This document shows, one piece after another, positions 3,180 to 30,770 of a DNA stretch of 64,000 bases. Position 1 is the first letter of the stretch; each line of letters starts with the position of its first letter. Source of the stretch: Escherichia coli (GTDB lineage: Bacteria; Pseudomonadota; Gammaproteobacteria; Enterobacterales; Enterobacteriaceae); NCBI RefSeq assembly GCF_044324785.1, contig NZ_CP172127.1. One strand, written 5' to 3'. Made by a program: the position numbers and the translations under genes. The notes under the pieces were generated by a model, which was given only the letters and a program-made list of their open reading frames with translations, was not told the DNA's origin and searched no databases.

Positions 3180-3509
3180 ATGAGCAATCTGAATCCATGC
3201 ATGACGTGTGGTGCCTGTTGTGCATTTTTCCGCGTCTCTTTTTACTGGGCCGAAGCCGACGATGCTGGCGGTACCATTCCCGCCAGGCTCACTGAACAAA
3301 TATCCCCTTTTCACCGATGCATGAGCGGTACCAATCAGAAAAACCCCCGATGTATTGCCCTTGCAGGAACACCGGGCAAAAATGCCTGCTGCACGATATA
3401 TAAAAATCGATCGTCCACGTGCAGAGAATTCGCCATGTCTGGTGAGAACGGAGTCGTCAATGAGGCTTGCAATCGTGCAAGAGCTAAATACGGGCTGACA
3501 CCGTTATAA
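3180..3509 (+). CDS. ykgJ: YkgJ-family cysteine-cluster protein (109 aa)
   Basis: 109-aa ORF rich in Cys motifs ([10 protein letters not shown]...C); length and position beside yagU match ykgJ. Confidence 0.8.
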
Positions 3510-4372: not shown

Positions 4373-4777
4373 ATCTACCCTGCTTGTACCATTATGTTAT
4401 ACACCTCTTCAGGAGTATTCATAAAACAAGACAAATGTAAAGAACTGTATTGTTTTGTATAATGCAATGGTGACTAATCGCCAATTAATATAAGCATCAT
4501 CATTTCTCCATATTTTTATATTAAAAGTGACAACGATTTACAGGATGATGCTGAGCTGACAATCACAGGTTTCCTTATCGTTTTTTGCATCGCACAACTA
4601 AAGCAATAAACTAGCTCCCGTCATCGGCGAATATGAATTAATTAACCGGGCTCATAGCTGCATTCGCGTTTTAAGAATAATCCTCCTGCTCTCACCGACT
4701 ATGCTTAACGTTTAAAAAAGCATCAGCACTCTCGCAACGCACTCTTATTTTCCCCTTTAGAATACCGGAGGCCTGGT

Positions 4778-5467
4778 ATGAGCAACCAAGGCGAATACCC
4801 CGAAGATAATCGGGTTGGGAAGCACGAGCCGCACGATTTTAGTTTGACCCGGCGCGATCTGATTAAAGTGAGCGCCGCAACGGCGGCGACCGCCGTGGTT
4901 TATCCTCATTCTACACTTGCGGCAAGCGTTCCGGCAGCTACACCCGCGCCAGAGATAATGCCCCTGACACTGAAGGTGAACGGCAAAACCGAGCAGCTTG
5001 AGGTGGATACCCGAACCACGCTACTGGACGCTTTGCGTGAAAATCTGCATCTGATCGGTACCAAGAAAGGTTGCGATCACGGACAGTGCGGAGCCTGTAC
5101 CGTGCTGGTCAATGGTCGCAGGCTTAATGCCTGCCTGACGCTTGCAGTCATGCATCAGGGGGCCGAGATCACCACCATTGAAGGCCTGGGTTCACCAGAT
5201 AATCTTCACCCCATGCAGGCGGCCTTTATCAAGCATGATGGCTTCCAGTGCGGCTACTGCACCTCCGGGCAAATTTGCTCATCAGTAGCGGTGCTAAAAG
5301 AGATTCAGGACGGCATTCCCAGTCACGTCACGGTCGATTTGGTTTCCCCTCCAGAAAGAACGGCCGATGAGATCCGTGAACGTATGAGCGGCAACATCTG
5401 TCGCTGTGGTGCATACGCTAACATCCTTGCCGCCATTGAAGACGCTGCGGGGGAGATAAAATCATGA
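4778..5467 (+). CDS. paoA: Periplasmic aldehyde oxidoreductase, [2Fe-2S] subunit PaoA
   Basis: 229 aa; Tat-type signal ([17 protein letters not shown]); two ferredoxin-like cysteine clusters (C-x-HGQCGAC and QCGYCTSG...CRCGAY). Confidence 0.9.
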
Positions 5468-23735: not shown

Positions 23736-26105
23736 TTAAATAAACATAAGAATAAACATCAGAAGTTCTTCGTATCTGATACCATACTGATAGCCAGCAG
23801 GTTTAATAATAACCTGCCTTCCTGTGTAATATTCCTCGTCGTACCACTCTCCTGTTTCATTGTTTTTAACACTCCTAATCAATACCTCTGGAGCATAAAT
23901 ATCATCCCATTCATCATAACACCAGAACGCATAGTTATTAGGGTCAAGACCGTATTTTCTGAGAATATTACCTACAGTTTGTGCACCAACGCCGAAATGA
24001 ATCCGAGCGCCATCACTCTTGATCTTTACTGCATCTTTAAATTTAAACCTCCAGATATTTTCCTTTATTTCAAGCGCAGCAAGACGCTCTGATTCTGTTG
24101 TTTTCTCGTCAGCCTCAATACGCAATTTCAGCTCTTCATTCGACGTGTTGATACTGCCAGTACCAGCGTATACCTGTGACCATCGAAATGCTGATGTTCC
24201 GTTTGAGTTAACATTATCAACAGTTGGTTTTATAAGGCCAGAAAAATGAGTTTCAGGTGTATTAATATATGTATATGCACCTGCTGTACTACGAGTCCTT
24301 AACTCAAAGCTGTCTATATCAACACCAGTCCTACGAATTATAAGGAAGTTATTTCCTGCGGAACCAGTATCGGTTTGAGTGCTAACAGACAATCCGTTTC
24401 GTGTATCAATACGTATATTCTTCCCGTTCTCCAGCGAAGCAGAATTATGTAGATACAGCGAGTTGTCAGTGTAGAGATTGTGTTTACCTACATTGCTAAA
24501 TGTATAAGTATTGCTTGTGTTATCACTGTTCCTATGGAATTGCTGAAGAGTGTAGGCAGAAGATGCTCCGTATCCATCACAATGGAAATTTCTGCACAGC
24601 TGCAAATCGAATAACAATACGGTGTCAGCATTAATGCTCACATTATTAAAGCATGTTGCAAAGTTGGCACCATACTGTGAATTGGAATCGCCAATCTGTG
24701 CGCACACATCAAGCAAACCAAAAGTTACATTGGTAAAGTTATTTGCATCACCGGCGTCAAGAACAATCCCTTTCTTAGTCCCTGAATACCCTCTGGCAGT
24801 GCCGATCTCAACTCCCTGGAATGAACACACGCGAGCACGACTAAGCTTAAGACCAACCCATTCCAGACCATGATCGTAACCTTTTGCTGCGCGGTGAATA
24901 AACATACCATTCATGATGAGAAGGAATCTGTTATCAAGCCGTACTGGTTCAAGTTGGGCATTAATACCAACATTTGTGCATATACATTCACCATAAGCAT
25001 AACGATTCGTTTCAAATATACGATCATCAGCGTCGTAAATGCCTCGTAATGCCTTGGCGGCATCAATATTAAGCAATGTAAAATATGTCTTCTGCTTAAT
25101 TTCAAAAAAATTTGCAACATTATGCGTTGTGATATCACTCACACGCATTGATAAAATCCCCTCTTCTGGAGCGGTGCGAATGAATCCATCAAGGAACTGT
25201 TCATTATAACTTTTGGCTATCTGATAACATCCAACAGCATCAATGCGTTCGATTGTGAACTGCCAACTATCACCACAGTTAAAAGACCATCTCCAGCCGT
25301 ATTTCTGAGCGAATTCATCATATTCAACATTTGCAGGTTCAGAACAGAAAGATAAAAATCTAAATGTTGGTTTTGGCCTTAGATGGTTAATCCCGGAACC
25401 TCTTGGGGTATATATGGCATTATCTCCATTCCCACCTTTTGTTTTAACTGTAAGGTGACTTAAACCAAATTCAATATCATATTTAGTTGGTGCGGCGAAA
25501 ACAAAGCCGTCTTTTGGTGATGTGGTATTGTCAAACACAATAACCGTTTCACCCTGCCCATCACCGCACATATTTACTGGTGGTATATTAACGGGGCCAG
25601 TCAAACTATATGTTCCAGTTGGCACATATAGTTTTCCACCCTCTCCAATAGCATTTGCCGCTGCAATAAATGCCGCCGTATCATCGTTAACACCGTCACC
25701 TTTCGCCCCATAATGCTGTGGCGTAATTAACAGCATACGGTCAGAAAAAATCTCTGTCCTAAGTTGATCAGGATCGTATTTTAATACATTTGGAAAATAA
25801 AACTGCTGAGTGCCATATGCATCATATACAGCCATAGAATGGCCTTGCACGGTAACGAATTTGGCAATCTGTCCGTTATATACCGGATAACCAGCAGCGT
25901 TAATAATGATTGGTTGAGAAACAGGAACGTGAGAACCGTCTTCGTTCTCTACATAAACCGGAATCTGGTTTTCAGGATTTACCGGGTCAGTGTCAATTTT
26001 ACCGATATAAATTTTTCCATTAGCATTTGCTTTAAACGAGCGAGCTAAAGTGAATAACTGACTTGGTTGTGAAACAACAACATTGGCATTTATTGAATCT
26101 GTCAT
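23736..26105 (-). CDS. Phage tailspike protein (P22 gp9-like head-binding domain with a divergent receptor-binding body)
   Basis: N-terminal ~115 aa ([18 protein letters not shown]...[12 protein letters not shown]...[13 protein letters not shown]...VLKYDPDQ) match the P22 tailspike head-binding domain; the remainder is unrelated and AT-rich at the 3' end. Confidence 0.85.
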
Positions 26106-26204: not shown

Positions 26205-27083
26205 TCAGTAGTTATGTACTGAAGGAGGTAATTCTTTATTCTTAAGTCTCATCCATGCGGAAATATTCGTTGGTCCGTCTGGCTCATTAATATCAACATC
26301 TCGTGTGTGATTGATTAAAACGTCTCTCGCCATTCCGATAACATACGAGAATTCATGACCGTAGTCGTAGCATCTGCCGGAATAGTTCGATTGAATTTGT
26401 TTCAGCGCCGGATACAGTTCGCGGAATAATGCCTGTGAGCGGTTGGCATAATCCCATAACCATACAAGGCTGTTTGCTTCTTTTGCAGAAAGCTCGTTGG
26501 TTTTCTTCTCTTGTTTGCCAATGAACTCACCTTCAAGCACTACCCTGTGGATGTACTCTACGGCCAGCGGGATTTGTTCAATTGAAAGTTCATCAATGCT
26601 GTCAATACCAAAACGCTGATGAACCATATTGTATGCATCGTCATAGCGAAGTCCTTTCTTTCCTACCAGCATGTTTACTGCATCGCGTAGCGGTGTTCTT
26701 TCCTCAACAGTGGTTTTCTTTCCTTTTACATACTCGCCATGTTTGCGAATTGAAGGCAGAACTTCTGCTGTTACCCACTTGCGGAATTTGTGCGGGACTG
26801 AACCTTTATTGACTGCATCGCGGCAGCGCAGAACCAATGTATACATACCTGATTCGCTCACAATGCTTAGATTCTGCTCACCACCAAGGGTGTAACTTAA
26901 AGTTACTCCCTTTTCATCGTCATCAAGTGCAGTAAGCGCCTTGCGTGAGTTAGTCAAATCTAAAGCATCACAAACATCTTTAGCTACAAACCACGGCTCA
27001 CCGCACTTGTTGATGACGCGGATTTCACTGTCGCCGAATTTGAAGATGGTGAAATCGTTTTGTGCCTTTGCTATACTTTTCAT
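26205..27083 (-). CDS. ant: Antirepressor Ant (Bro-N/KilAC type) of the immI region
   Basis: 292 aa; N-terminus [25 protein letters not shown] is typical of P22-like Ant; sits downstream of arc. Confidence 0.8.
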
Positions 27084-27151
27084 GTCAATATTTCCTAATC
27101 CGATTTGTTGATGCCGAAGCCCTGACTGTTACAGCAGTTGGGGCTTCAACT

Positions 27152-27403: not shown

Positions 27404-27658
27404 ATGGCTAGAGATGATCCGCACTTTAACTTCCGTATGCCTTTGGAAGTAAGAGAAAAATTGAAATTAAGAGCCGAGGCTAACGGAAGGTCAATGAACT
27501 CTGAGTTATTACAAATCGTTCAGGATGCACTATCAAAACCATCACCGATTACAGGATATCGCGACGAAGCTGAACGCTTGGCTGATCAGCAGGCTGAGCA
27601 GTTCAAGGCTATAGTGTTTGAGACACTTAAAAAGATTTATGAAAAGGATTTGAAATGA
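27404..27658 (+). CDS. mnt: Mnt repressor (maintenance of lysogeny)
   Basis: 84 aa, MARDDPHFNFRMPLEVREKLKLRAEANGRSMNSELLQIVQDALSKPSP...; ribbon-helix-helix N-terminus like P22 Mnt. Confidence 0.9.
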   Translation: MARDDPHFNFRMPLEVREKLKLRAEANGRSMNSELLQIVQDALSKPSPITGYRDEAERLADQQAEQFKAIVFETLKKIYEKDLK

Positions 27659-27709: not shown

Positions 27710-28766
27710 GGCTTTGTTGAATAAATCGAACTTTTGCTGAGTTGAAGGATCAGATCACGTATCTTCCCGACAACGCAGACCGTTCCGTGGCAAAGCAAAA
27801 GTTCAAAATCACCAACTGGCCCACCTACAATAAAGCCCTCATCAACCGTGGCTCCATAACTTTCTGGCTGGATGATGAAGCTATTCAGGCCTGGTATGAG
27901 TCAGCAACACCTTCTTCACGAGGCAGACCTCAGCGCTATTCTGACCTTGCCATCACTACTGTGCTGGTCATTAAACGCGTATTCAGGCTGACCCTGCGGG
28001 CTGCGCAGGGCTTTATTGATTCCATTTTTTCTCTGATGAACGTTCCGCTACGCTGCCCGGATTACAGCTGTGTCAGCAGGCGGGCAAAGTCGGTTAATGT
28101 CAGTTTCAAAACGCCCACCCGGGGTGAAATCGCACACCTGGTAATTGATTCCACCGGGCTGAAGGTCTTCGGTGAAGGCGAGTGGAAAGTCAAAAAGCAT
28201 GGCCAGGAACGCCGCCGTATCTGGCGTAAGCTGCATCTCGCCGTTGACAGTAAAACACATGAAATCATCTGCGCTGACCTGTCGCTGAACAACGTTACGG
28301 ACTCAGAGGCCTTCCCCGGGTTAATCCGGCAAACCCACCGGAAAATCAGGTCAGCCGCCGCCGATGGCGCTTACGATACCCGGCTATGTCACGATGAACT
28401 GCGGCGTAAGAAAATCAGCGCGCTTATCCCTCCCCGAAAAGGTGCGGGTTACTGGCCCGGTGAATATGCAGACCGTAACCGTGCAGTGGCTAATCAGCGA
28501 ATGACCGGGAGTAATGCGCGGTGGAAATGGACAACAGATTACAACCGTCGCTCGATAGCGGAAACGGCGATGTACCGGGTAAAACAGCTGTTCGGGGGTT
28601 CACTGACGCTGCGTGACTACGATGGTCAGGTTGCGGAGGCTATGGCCCTGGTACGAGCGCTGAACAAAATGACGAAAGCAGGTATGCCTGAAAGCGTGCG
28701 TATTGCCTGAAAACACAACCCGCTACGGGGGAGACTTACCCGAAATCTGATTTATTCAACAAAGCC
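27710..28766 (+). mobile_element. IS903-like insertion sequence (IS5 family), 1057 bp, flanked by a 9-bp target-site duplication
   Basis: Terminal inverted repeats GGCTTTGTTGAATAAATC (27710-27727) and GATTTATTCAACAAAGCC (28749-28766); direct 9-bp duplication GTGCTGAGC at 27701-27709 and 28767-28775; 1057 bp matches IS903. Confidence 0.9.
27787..28710 (+). CDS. IS903-type DDE transposase (307 aa from GTG 27787)
   Basis: The VAKQKFKITNWPTYNKALINRGSITFWLDDEAIQAWYE N-terminus matches IS903 transposase as I recall it; the ORF is also open from an upstream ATG at 27742. Confidence 0.85.
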   Translation: MAKQKFKITNWPTYNKALINRGSITFWLDDEAIQAWYESATPSSRGRPQRYSDLAITTVLVIKRVFRLTLRAAQGFIDSIFSLMNVPLRCPDYSCVSRRAKSVNVSFKTPTRGEIAHLVIDSTGLKVFGEGEWKVKKHGQERRRIWRKLHLAVDSKTHEIICADLSLNNVTDSEAFPGLIRQTHRKIRSAAADGAYDTRLCHDELRRKKISALIPPRKGAGYWPGEYADRNRAVANQRMTGSNARWKWTTDYNRRSIAETAMYRVKQLFGGSLTLRDYDGQVAEAMALVRALNKMTKAGMPESVRIA

Positions 28767-29071
28767 GTGCTGAGCTGCGCGAGCTTCAAACGGGTAATGA
28801 CCTTCTTTACAACATTCAACAAGGTAAAAAGGGTGATGATTTTTCATCGCTTTACATTACTGGATATTTGCGCGGAGTAACTGACTCATTGATACTAATT
28901 GGTTCTCTATGTCCTCCTGATGGCGTTGACATGTATCAATACACCGATATCGTTGAGAAATCTCTAAACAAAAACCCAGAATCAAGAAATGAGAGTGCAG
29001 TTATACTAACCGCCCTAGCAGTAGGAAAAACATTTCCGTGCAAAAAGAATCAATAACAATAAGGGCTTAAA

Positions 29072-29461
29072 ATGAAATTGATTATAGCAATGGCTTTCCT
29101 TGTCTTCTCGTTTTCTGTCTCAGCAGAGTGCTGGGTCGTTGGAGATATGCACGGAATAAGCTATTCAGAACGAAATAATTTTCAACCGGAAGAAGATGGT
29201 TTTAGTGGAACATTCATCATTAAGACAAACGGTGAAGATGCCAGTATCACATATTCTGGGACGGATGCGGGCGGCATGGCTTACAAAGCATTGTCTAAAA
29301 ACTCCATCCTAGGAATTGGCGCGAATGGAGAAACTCAACGCGTTATAGACTCATGGGTAATACATCCTACTGGAACAGTTTTAATGTCAAAAACCATTTC
29401 CGGTTATGGAAATATGGATTCAACCAAAGCTTTTGTTGGAAAAGTAAAAAGAAAATGTTAA
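29072..29461 (+). CDS. Hypothetical secreted/periplasmic protein (129 aa)
   Basis: Signal peptide MKLIIAMAFLVFSFSVSAEC; second gene of the mnt-downstream operon; no recognisable domain. Confidence 0.6.
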   Translation: MKLIIAMAFLVFSFSVSAECWVVGDMHGISYSERNNFQPEEDGFSGTFIIKTNGEDASITYSGTDAGGMAYKALSKNSILGIGANGETQRVIDSWVIHPTGTVLMSKTISGYGNMDSTKAFVGKVKRKC

Positions 29462-29482: not shown

Positions 29483-29677
29483 TCAACAGCTTCCGCGTCC
29501 CTGAGTAATTCTGTTGCGGATTTGCTTCTTGCGGTGGTTTAAGCTGGAGAGCTTGGCTTCTGCTTCTGATATTTGCGCATCAAGATCTTTAAGCTCAAGA
29601 TCTGAAAGTCGCTGGTCAAGCAGGGTTTGGTTCAACTCAATATTGTTCAGACGTTCTTCTATGGTCATAACTTTCAT
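29483..29677 (-). CDS. Small coiled-coil protein (about 64 aa from ATG 29677)
   Basis: Heptad-rich MKVMTIEERLNNIELNQTLLDQRLSDLELKDLDAQISEAEAKLSSLNHRKKQIRNRI; start codon choice is uncertain. Confidence 0.4.
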   Translation of the reverse strand: MKVMTIEERLNNIELNQTLLDQRLSDLELKDLDAQISEAEAKLSSLNHRKKQIRNRITQGRGSC

Positions 29678-29699
29678 CCTATAACTATTTGGAATCAAA

Positions 29700-29882
29700 A
29701 TGAAAAATATATTAATTGGTTTCGTTTTTGGTGCAGCCTGCGCTGCCAGCATTAGCGTTATCGCCGCCCAGATTGTTGGTGGTAACTCATATCTAATGGG
29801 CTATGACGTCATGATAGATGGAGAGGTTGTTTGCTCAGACCCTTATGTATGGACGTCGACAAAAGAAATAGAATGTGACTAA
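29700..29882 (+). CDS. Small signal-peptide/membrane protein (60 aa)
   Basis: [28 protein letters not shown] hydrophobic N-terminus; AT-rich cargo region. Confidence 0.35.
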
Positions 29883-29977
29883 TACCAGCCTGATGGCTGG
29901 TTAATTTTTGCATTTACCTGGGCCATATTGACTACTTATAAAATGAGATCAATATTTAATCGCCCAATAACGGGTGT

Positions 29978-30172
29978 ATGTTGAGGTATATCATGGCGAA
30001 AAAACCAGGTGAAAATACAGGGAAAAACGGCGGAATATACCAGGAAGTTGGTCCACGCGGTGGTAAGAAGGACAATTTTGCCACCGTCAGGGACAACGAA
30101 AGACTTCCGCCAACAACAAAGCCAGGTCATGGCTGGGTATTGGATAAGCGAACTCCAGACAGCAAAAAGTAA
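29978..30172 (+). CDS. Small basic Gly/Lys-rich protein (64 aa; start may be ATG 29993)
   Basis: ORF only; MAKKPGENTGKNGGIYQEVGPRGGKKDN. Confidence 0.3.
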   Translation: MLRYIMAKKPGENTGKNGGIYQEVGPRGGKKDNFATVRDNERLPPTTKPGHGWVLDKRTPDSKK

Positions 30173-30185
30173 TAATCAAGCCGGG

Positions 30186-30551
30186 TCACTCCGGCTTTTT
30201 GATATGTCGCTCGCAGAACTCAACAAGCCTGCTCATTAAGTAGCAGTAAGTCTCGTTGGCTCTTCCTGGTTCAACATCAACACCTACCCTTGAGCAGATA
30301 TCGAATGCCATGTGAGCGCACTCATGGGCAATAGTAGATAGTTTGCCATTGAACACGCCTATCACATGCAAAACACCATTCTCGCTACTCATTGTATGAG
30401 ACGCTCCGTTGGCGTCCGAGTCATGCACGTCAACGCCAAGTTTTTGATGCAGGCGTTGCCATTCTGGAAAGTCTCTACAAAACACAATGGTACCGCTCTC
30501 AAAGAGCGGTACGAGCATCTTTGGTACGTTTCCAATGTTAACTTTTTTCAT
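30186..30551 (-). CDS. Small HExxH-motif protein (putative Zn-metallopeptidase-like), 121 aa
   Basis: Contains IAHECAHMAF (HExxH) plus downstream E/C residues; no further similarity recognised. Confidence 0.45.
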   Translation of the reverse strand: MKKVNIGNVPKMLVPLFESGTIVFCRDFPEWQRLHQKLGVDVHDSDANGASHTMSSENGVLHVIGVFNGKLSTIAHECAHMAFDICSRVGVDVEPGRANETYCYLMSRLVEFCERHIKKPE

Positions 30552-30582
30552 GGTATCCTGCGCAAAACTAAGGAGGTTGGTG

Positions 30583-30770
30583 TGAAGAAAAAATTTGTAA
30601 ACGTTGCAAAGTGCGCAATTTTTATATTTTTTATGACCTTTTACGGATTTAGTGCCGGAGAAGGTTTCGATCGTGATGCCAATGCATTCAGTTTCTTTTG
30701 TCTGTCTATAGTGGTCATAATTGTATGGGTGGAATTAAAGCAAACATTGTTTCATGTGCTAGGGAAATAA
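30583..30770 (+). CDS. Small two-TM membrane protein (62 aa from GTG 30583)
   Basis: Strong RBS AAGGAGG 6 bp upstream of GTG; VKKKFVNVAKCAIFIFFMTFYGFSAGEGFDRDANAFSFFCLSIVVIIVWVELKQTLFHVLGK. Confidence 0.45.

Follow-up and report, generated by a model that had tools for sequence, protein, structure and literature searches.

A likely patchwork of exchanged accessory cassettes with a putative minimal zinc metallopeptidase gene in the ant moron of a P22-like Escherichia coli prophage

Five small open reading frames (ORFs) at positions 29483-30770 of a 64-kb stretch of Escherichia coli DNA (contig NZ_CP172127.1; this whole stretch is hereafter called the window) lie in a P22-like (Lederbergvirus-type) prophage with its late genes on the minus strand. 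We consider it likely that this cluster is the gene-16-proximal half of the so-called ant moron of P22-like phages, i.e., a patchwork of swapped accessory cassettes whose genes can be given putative roles. It would be a new combination within a known and named hypervariable region, with P22's own DNA at its core, and is otherwise ordinary. What is new here is that one of its products, HkcC, can be placed in a large family of zincin-like proteins of minimal size, and that its gene is recurrently though facultatively paired with a YjzC-like gene, orf59a.

The accessory stretch sits inside the late operon, with the homologue of P22 gene 16 on one side and that of tailspike gene 9 on the other, and the gene order around it is syntenic with P22 (Table 1). 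The region between these two genes in P22-like phages has been named the ant moron and described as hypervariable, with ten types among sixteen genomes, and hkcC and 59a were already listed there, along with sieA, as P22 genes of the moron, the former two being of unknown function (Villafane et al. 2008, PMC2629481). According to the same work, transcription from PLate reads through the moron into tailspike gene 9, and the moron was proposed to influence tailspike expression. Its content varies widely: sieA is present in only 22 of 66 P22-like phages (Leavitt et al. 2024, PMC10883804), and an immunity-conferring antisense RNA is encoded at this position in phage BTP1 (PMC7067206). The window region shares with the described moron its position, its neighbors (gene 16, mnt, arc, sar, ant, and the tailspike gene), the presence of both hkcC and 59a, and its mosaicism. 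However, it carries an ORF for a membrane protein of 62 amino acids (aa) in place of P22 sieA and adds a coiled-coil plus exported-protein pair as well as a 129-aa exported protein and a Rap1a/Tai-family gene disrupted by an insertion sequence (IS). The latter two genes separate mnt from the five ORFs, so that the cluster, which the original prediction had placed between the ejection-protein genes and the mnt operon, is not a direct neighbor of mnt.

The evidence for a patchwork comes above all from the central ca. 700 bp of the cluster (29884-30584), which are 96.4% identical to P22 and HK620 and shared with many relatives; the P22 equivalent lies between mnt and sieA. This block contains a tMNT-like hairpin, a promoter-like site, orf59a, a two-way terminator, hkcC, and a putative sieA promoter, and because it matches the gene annotation of P22 and HK620, the Gly/Lys-rich protein and the HExxH protein noted earlier can be recognized as Orf59a and HkcC, respectively. 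The earlier view that the content here is different from P22 and unrecognized therefore holds for the replaced sieA but not for this block. Its signals are well conserved in alignment: the hairpin at the left edge shows compensatory stem changes (CCAGCC/GGCTGG in the window vs. CCACC/GGTGG in HK620), while the candidate promoter upstream of orf59a shows no change between the window, P22, HK620, and CH4794. The genes orf59a and hkcC converge on the two-way terminator, which P22 annotates as t mnt and HK620 as tORF59A and which is likewise invariant. The putative sieA promoter overlaps the first hkcC codons, points toward the 62-aa ORF, and is identical in the four aligned phages.

The right-hand joint of this block is sharp. 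In the four-way alignment, homology extends through a shared GTG start codon (window 30582; position 3198 in both L001 and L002) and then stops, followed by sieA in P22, hkcB in HK620, and the 62-aa ORF in the window and CH4794. Since homology ends at the shared GTG and the genes beyond it are unrelated, the slot appears to be exchanged exactly at the start codon, with one promoter and one ribosome-binding site (RBS) serving all comers. Across relatives, it is occupied by sieA, hkcB, a 122-aa gene, the 129-aa gene, or the 62-aa ORF. The original prediction was right in that the cluster takes the place of the P22 sieA region. The exchange of sieA, hkcB, and the 62-aa ORF under a single promoter provides a natural series of candidate exclusion genes.

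On a broader scale, the orf59a-hkcC core is shared at 96-100% identity and is a fixed element of many prophages of E. coli and Salmonella, whereas both flanks differ between P22, HK620, ET479, ETEC1747, strain 165, CH4794, JEP4, UPF_BP1, and Kapi1. Neighboring plus-strand cassettes in relatives encode envelope proteins, including a gene that the PGAP annotation labels as Rap1a/Tai family, which would suit envelope functions expressed from the prophage. Among 5426 complete E. coli genomes, hkcC is found in 130, orf59a in 114, and the 62-aa ORF in 88, and at least 80% of the window's 1.9-kb arrangement is covered in only a single one. Every cassette is lost in some close relatives, an outcome that the original prediction had named as speaking against real genes; we take it to reflect the dispensability of morons rather than the unreality of the ORFs.

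Table 1. Features of the P22-like prophage in and around the accessory stretch (window coordinates)
Feature	Position	Strand	Size	Evidence or remark
Tailspike-sized ORF	23736-26105	-		ORF call
ant	26205-27083			Left of accessory stretch
sar RNA	27085-27151			Rfam match, 65.6 bits
mnt	27404-27658	+
129-aa signal-peptide protein	29072-29461		129 aa	phrog_2651; just outside cluster
Coiled-coil ORF	29483-29668 or to 29677	-	61-64 aa
Signal-peptide ORF	29700-29882	+	60 aa
Hairpin with T-run	29884-29901	+		Terminator scan; homologue of tMNT in HK620 annotation; left edge of P22-shared block
Sigma-70-like promoter site (TTGACT-17 nt-AATATT)	29928-29956	+		Consensus scan, 9/12; 5' of orf59a
Gly/Lys-rich basic ORF (orf59a homologue)	29993-30172	+	59 aa
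GC-rich hairpin, T-runs on both strands	30178-30197	both		Terminator scan on both strands
HExxH ORF (hkcC homologue)	30186-30551	-	121 aa
Putative sieA promoter homologue	30521-30551	+		P22 annotation, L001 3137-3167
Two-helix membrane ORF	30582 (GTG)-30770	+	62 aa
Gene 16 homologue (ejection)	30788-32698	-		Right flank of accessory stretch
Gene 20 (ejection)	32698-34083

Selection on the small genes and their possible expression

Comparison of each ORF with its alleles in ca. 90 related loci revealed that four of them are clearly under purifying selection. The ratio of non-synonymous to synonymous polymorphism (pN/pS) is 0.00-0.03 for the HExxH gene (e.g., 11 synonymous changes to one non-synonymous), 0.03-0.06 for the 59-aa basic gene, 0.05-0.14 for the 60-aa signal-peptide gene, and 0-0.36 for the coiled-coil gene (8 alleles). 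All five ORFs match PHROG families of unknown function (E = 1e-30 to 1e-45), and these matches together with the ORF positions bear out the earlier description of five small genes of unknown function on mixed strands. Calling the stretch AT-rich overstated the case somewhat, given that the cluster has a mildly low GC content of 0.38-0.49 against ca. 0.45-0.55 in the neighboring late genes. An NCBIfam scan of all six small proteins returned nothing meaningful, and the defense-system models of PADLOC matched none of the six to a known system: the coiled-coil ORF gave only chance-level coiled-coil matches to PbeC and JetC (E = 7e-4 and 5e-3), the other five proteins none.

Alternatively, some of these ORFs, chiefly the 62-aa one, might not be genes, in which case the DNA would only provide spacing for promoters and terminators and thereby adjust how much transcription continues into the tailspike gene, in keeping with the proposed effect of the ant moron on tailspike expression (PMC2629481). 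The 62-aa ORF indeed lacks informative variation and is unannotated in phage records (JEP4, UPF_BP1, and phiv205-1, which also carries it) as well as in some genomes. However, PGAP annotates a protein there in others, the frame is intact, and the product has two predicted hydrophobic helices. Its RBS also moves with it, i.e., the strong consensus Shine-Dalgarno sequence AAGGAGG located 5 nt before the GTG is retained in three different contexts. Together with the strong purifying selection on the other four ORFs, this makes a mere spacer function improbable.

If the cluster is a patchwork of cassettes as we favor, one- and two-gene units would have been exchanged by recombination at fixed joints. 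One piece, the segment native to P22, would comprise the promoter, orf59a, the two-way terminator, hkcC, and the putative sieA promoter; a second would be the 62-aa membrane-protein cassette joined at the GTG of P22 sieA, and a third the divergent coiled-coil/exported-protein pair inserted on the mnt side. The plus-strand genes (those of the 60-aa exported protein, Orf59a, and the 62-aa protein) oppose the late operon and, since they have start signals of their own and hairpin terminators, could be expressed in the prophage state. The 62-aa inner-membrane protein, made from the sieA promoter, would act at the envelope and perhaps hinder DNA entry of related phages. By contrast, the minus-strand genes (hkcC and the coiled-coil gene) lack a conserved promoter and would be transcribed late by PLate read-through toward the tailspike gene. 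HkcC would be a soluble gluzincin-type zinc metallopeptidase with the two histidines of HExxH and Glu100 as metal ligands and Glu77 as the base, cleaving some protein in the infected cell, and Orf59a a small, beta-rich YjzC-family protein that often travels with HkcC but is dispensable for its retention.

Several points weigh against parts of this reading. The consensus scan missed the annotated sieA promoter and found no promoter for the 60-aa signal-peptide gene. Both prophage expression of the plus-strand genes and late read-through, which is the simplest route to hkcC expression, are inferred from gene orientation and the P22 annotation. The 62-aa protein is unrelated to P22 SieA in a BLASTP comparison (E = 0.28), and its gene shows too little variation to judge selection, with one amino-acid change each in JEP4 and UPF_BP1. 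Finally, an AlphaFold2 (AF2) model of HkcC fused through a linker to Orf59a, computed with a block alignment, had both parts folded but did not support a complex (predicted TM score, pTM, of 0.54, without a predicted aligned error).

The HkcC protein family

On balance, we lean toward viewing HkcC as a minimal zinc metallopeptidase from a family undescribed in Pfam, its catalytic activity being putative. A search of 1.84 billion representative proteins (E <= 1e-3) placed it in a family of 278 clusters, and among the 150 entries listed most are stand-alone proteins of ca. 105-140 aa. The window protein, 121 aa long and encoded in late-operon orientation, carries the motif HECAH at residues 76-80. 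In 88 members with 23-74% identity to it, the only invariant columns are H76, E77, H80, and E100. This last residue lies 20 positions past H80 within the motif N-E-x-x-C-Y-L, is preceded by Asn, and begins a predicted helix (100-116). Thermolysin, the type example of this gluzincin arrangement, has H142, E143, H146, and E166, and we take the HExxH of HkcC with a glutamate 20 residues on to match the thermolysin spacing.

The AF2 model of HkcC is confident (predicted local distance difference test, pLDDT, of 94.1; pTM 0.87) and runs strand-strand-helix-strand-strand, followed by the HExxH helix (71-88) and the helix starting at E100. HkcC thus resembles gluzincins in having HExxH, a downstream glutamate, and a predicted beta sheet followed by two helices. 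It differs in its length of only 121 residues and in having no Pfam family and no significant neighbor among solved structures; metal binding and activity are putative. A profile search of PDB sequences gave weak, non-significant matches that were mostly zincins (myroilysin, BMP1/astacin, and thermolysin). When Foldseek was run against AFDB50, members of HkcC's own family ranked first, and the remote neighbors carried labels such as IrrE N-terminal-like, ImmA/IrrE, SprT-like, DUF4157, phage metallopeptidase, or polyvalent-protein domain. A literature search on the name hkcC returned unrelated acronyms only, and the protein accessions gave nothing.

The original prediction had suggested that ImmA/IrrE or SprT profiles might place the HExxH protein, but when these were searched the window protein fell into neither Pfam family. 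ImmA/IrrE (PF06114) had no match at E <= 0.1 among the window HkcC and the 88 family members. SprT-like (PF10263) matched one of the 88 at E <= 1e-3 and 11 at E <= 0.1 (best E = 1.2e-4) but not the window HkcC itself, for which a Pfam search overall found no family. HkcC shares with both groups that they are small zincin-like proteins of phages and mobile elements, and some of the remote neighbors of its model are labeled accordingly; it departs from them in fitting neither profile, in having no adjoining Xre-type repressor, and in its third conserved residue being a glutamate. One could still imagine HkcC as an anti-repressor protease of the ImmA/IrrE type that cuts Mnt, Arc, or C2 in the control of immunity, because hkcC adjoins the immI region and some remote structural neighbors bear the ImmA/IrrE label. 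However, besides the lack of an ImmA/IrrE profile match, HK620 retains hkcC though its mnt and ant are reduced to remnants, and in most other contexts the gene has no repressor next to it and sits among lysis, terminase, or tail genes. We therefore consider this role highly improbable.

Genomic context connects HkcC to late genes. In every examined context with recognizable late genes, it is co-oriented with them and sits at a module junction. It follows gene 16 in P22-like phages; the holin, lysozyme, spanin, and a 109-aa gene in a Xenorhabdus prophage; the tape-measure gene in L101; the tail chaperones in L170; and directly a Q-like antiterminator gene in L108. In L172-L175 it stands between the lysis and the terminase genes, and in L008 within a siphovirus tail module. 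A conserved promoter of its own is unlikely because hkcC and the gene diverging from it are only ca. 30 bp apart in P22-like phages, the DNA upstream varies with each cassette, and the consensus scan found none. In one lineage with HkcC only, the gene adjoining it on the side of the small terminase subunit (L174 3355-3993) encodes a 212-aa protein with a HELYH motif and the phrog_513 label "transposase" (E = 1.4e-100).

The curated P22 record (BK000583, L004 2862-3224) shows no gene in the 366-bp hkcC stretch, although HK620 annotates hkcC there. The unannotated P22 ORF at this position is 99% identical to HK620 hkcC, as is the window protein to both, and is under strong purifying selection. 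A chance ORF, as the omission from the curated record might suggest, is rejected by this selection and by the breadth of the family. P22 and HK620 hence harbor a selection-constrained gene for a minimal zinc-protease-like protein, and P22 genetics allows a direct test of its role. The terminator scan also picked up a perfect 10-bp hairpin (GTACCGCTCT...AGAGCGGTAC) within the hkcC coding sequence (30490-30512, minus strand), the stem of which has one mismatch in P22 and HK620.

Pairing of HkcC with the YjzC-like Orf59a

Orf59a of the window is a basic, Gly-rich protein of 59 aa (phrog_3202) that is 96.6% identical to P22 Orf59a. Its 103 homologues, at 41-97% identity, have in common an invariant GPRGG core and the broader motif GG(I/Q)YQEVGPRGG...LPPT. 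A weak match to Pfam YjzC (PF14168; E = 0.0031, 18.2 bits) covers nearly the whole model, and the same model is matched by the 11 most distant homologues (P0270-P0280) and one closer. Among homologues named in UniRef, four are called "YjzC family protein" and one "hypothetical protein". Orf59a thus has the size and motif of the YjzC family, but its Pfam score is weak and the family itself has no known function or solved structure: a profile search of PDB sequences found no solved relative of Orf59a or YjzC, and our literature search on YjzC found nothing functional. In the fused AF2 model, the Orf59a part forms three beta strands with pLDDT 85-92.

The original prediction had singled out the HExxH gene and the convergent basic gene as the most system-like pair of the cluster, and this observation holds up well: HkcC and YjzC genes occur tail to tail, 5-30 bp apart, in at least five unrelated phage contexts. 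These comprise P22-like phages from Salmonella, E. coli, and Morganella; a siphovirus tail module in Rosenbergiella; the region following the lysis genes in a Xenorhabdus prophage; the region behind a Q-like gene in high-GC viral contigs; and a contig beside an Acb2/Tad1-type gene. Such recurrence could indicate a two-component system in which HkcC is a protease and Orf59a its substrate, inhibitor, or regulator, acting in defense or counter-defense, with the other genes of the cluster as unrelated cargo. Consistent with this idea, the divergence of HkcC and YjzC follows the same rank order in five lineages, and in Xenorhabdus a YjzC with 78% identity accompanies an HkcC-type partner with only 19.5%, as if the kind of partner, rather than its sequence, were being preserved.

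However, the pairing is facultative. HkcC occurs without YjzC in at least seven other lineages (L009, L101, L170-L175), and YjzC without HkcC in L097-L100. In 11 of 80 near-identical IMG/VR loci (L011-L090), orf59a is swapped for another small membrane ORF. HK620 orf59a carries a premature stop at codon 18 (CAA TAA vs. CAG GAA in P22 and the window; L002 ca. 2657-2662, alignment columns 159-164), while the adjacent hkcC is intact. Furthermore, the two genes are convergent and not co-transcribed, no PADLOC model was matched, and the fused model gave no sign of a complex, a modeling result that we regard as at best weakly negative. With a partnership this facultative, the two-component reading is a minority hypothesis that we consider unlikely. 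A toxin-antitoxin relationship of HkcC and Orf59a was rejected since each gene can be lost alone.

Put more broadly, HkcC and the YjzC-like Orf59a may tentatively be seen as a conserved two-gene module, a minimal zinc protease with a small beta-protein, arranged tail to tail around a shared terminator in temperate phages of Proteobacteria with a part in phage-host or phage-phage conflict, though we would give this proposal a rather low probability. The recurrent pairing lends the idea of a new accessory module a concrete form and, if true, such a module would have been overlooked in so well-studied a phage as P22, in the curated record of which hkcC is not annotated.

Other genes lie near one or both partners. 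A phrog_1349 protein of ca. 210-220 aa is encoded directly downstream of HkcC in L170 (3563-4195) and directly downstream of a lone YjzC in L097 (3492-4157) and L100 (3506-4171), with the two forms sharing 27% identity (E = 3e-23), and HkcC and YjzC may thus have this protein as a third associate. A gene for an Acb2/Tad1 hairpin domain lies just upstream of one HkcC/YjzC pair (L010 972-1259), and a Tad2-like gene is found near the Xenorhabdus pair (L096 5670-6183). Acb2/Tad1 and Tad2 are counter-defense families.

The sieA slot, the coiled-coil cassette, and neighboring genes

The 62-aa protein (phrog_21338) has two hydrophobic segments and occupies the exact slot of P22 sieA and HK620 hkcB. 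A role in superinfection exclusion is plausible from position alone. Its gene shares with P22 sieA the promoter region, RBS, and GTG start as well as the convergent orientation relative to gene 16, and the product is likewise a predicted inner-membrane protein. On the other hand, SieA has 164 residues instead of 62, the two show no sequence similarity, and the conserved FxRYPxEAxxFNK motif (PMC10883804) is absent from the 62-aa sequence, the comparison having been made with P22 SieA, which represents type A among the SieA types A, B, and C. BLASTP gave no alignment of the 62-aa protein with HkcB. In JEP4 and UPF_BP1, the ORF lies beside gene 16 in the absence of both hkcC and orf59a.

On the mnt side, the coiled-coil ORF is oriented with the late operon and likely starts at the ATG at 29668 (61 aa, MTIEERL...) with an alternative ATG at 29677; it matches phrog_7586 (E = 3.9e-44) from residue 4 onward. 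The PGAP label "XhlA family" for this ORF is unsupported (Pfam XhlA, E = 0.63), and its long form had no significant Pfam match (DUF3847, E = 0.019). The divergent 60-aa protein (phrog_37095, E = 1.3e-45) has a signal peptide at ca. residues 1-22 and two cysteines in its mature part, and the Kapi1 record describes its homologue as signal 1-22 and outside 23-61. Both genes occur together in all eight fetched loci with the 60-aa gene, and Kapi1 carries the pair without hkcC and orf59a. In the loci that we inspected (those with the 60-aa gene plus L013, L015, L052, and L064), a small exported or membrane ORF diverges from the coiled-coil gene at a distance of ca. 30 bp, encoding either the 60-aa protein or an unrelated protein of ca. 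70 aa with one hydrophobic stretch (window 29668-29700; L013 ca. 4440-4812). The same arrangement is seen for hkcC and the sieA slot.

The 129-aa gene just outside the cluster occupies the sieA slot, divergent from hkcC, in many other prophages and is therefore a further movable cassette; its product had no significant match in Pfam or in the profile search of PDB sequences. The Rap1a/Tai-family gene, labeled by PGAP as an immunity protein, starts at 27655, overlapping the mnt stop codon, and ends at 29056. It is split by an IS903-like element of 1057 bp (27710-28766) that encodes a transposase of 322 aa, has a GC content of ca. 55%, is bounded by the terminal inverted repeats GGCTTTGTTGAATAAATC, and shows a target duplication of 9 bp (GTGCTGAGC). 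In E. coli ETEC1747, the same gene is uninterrupted (L005 2822-3157).

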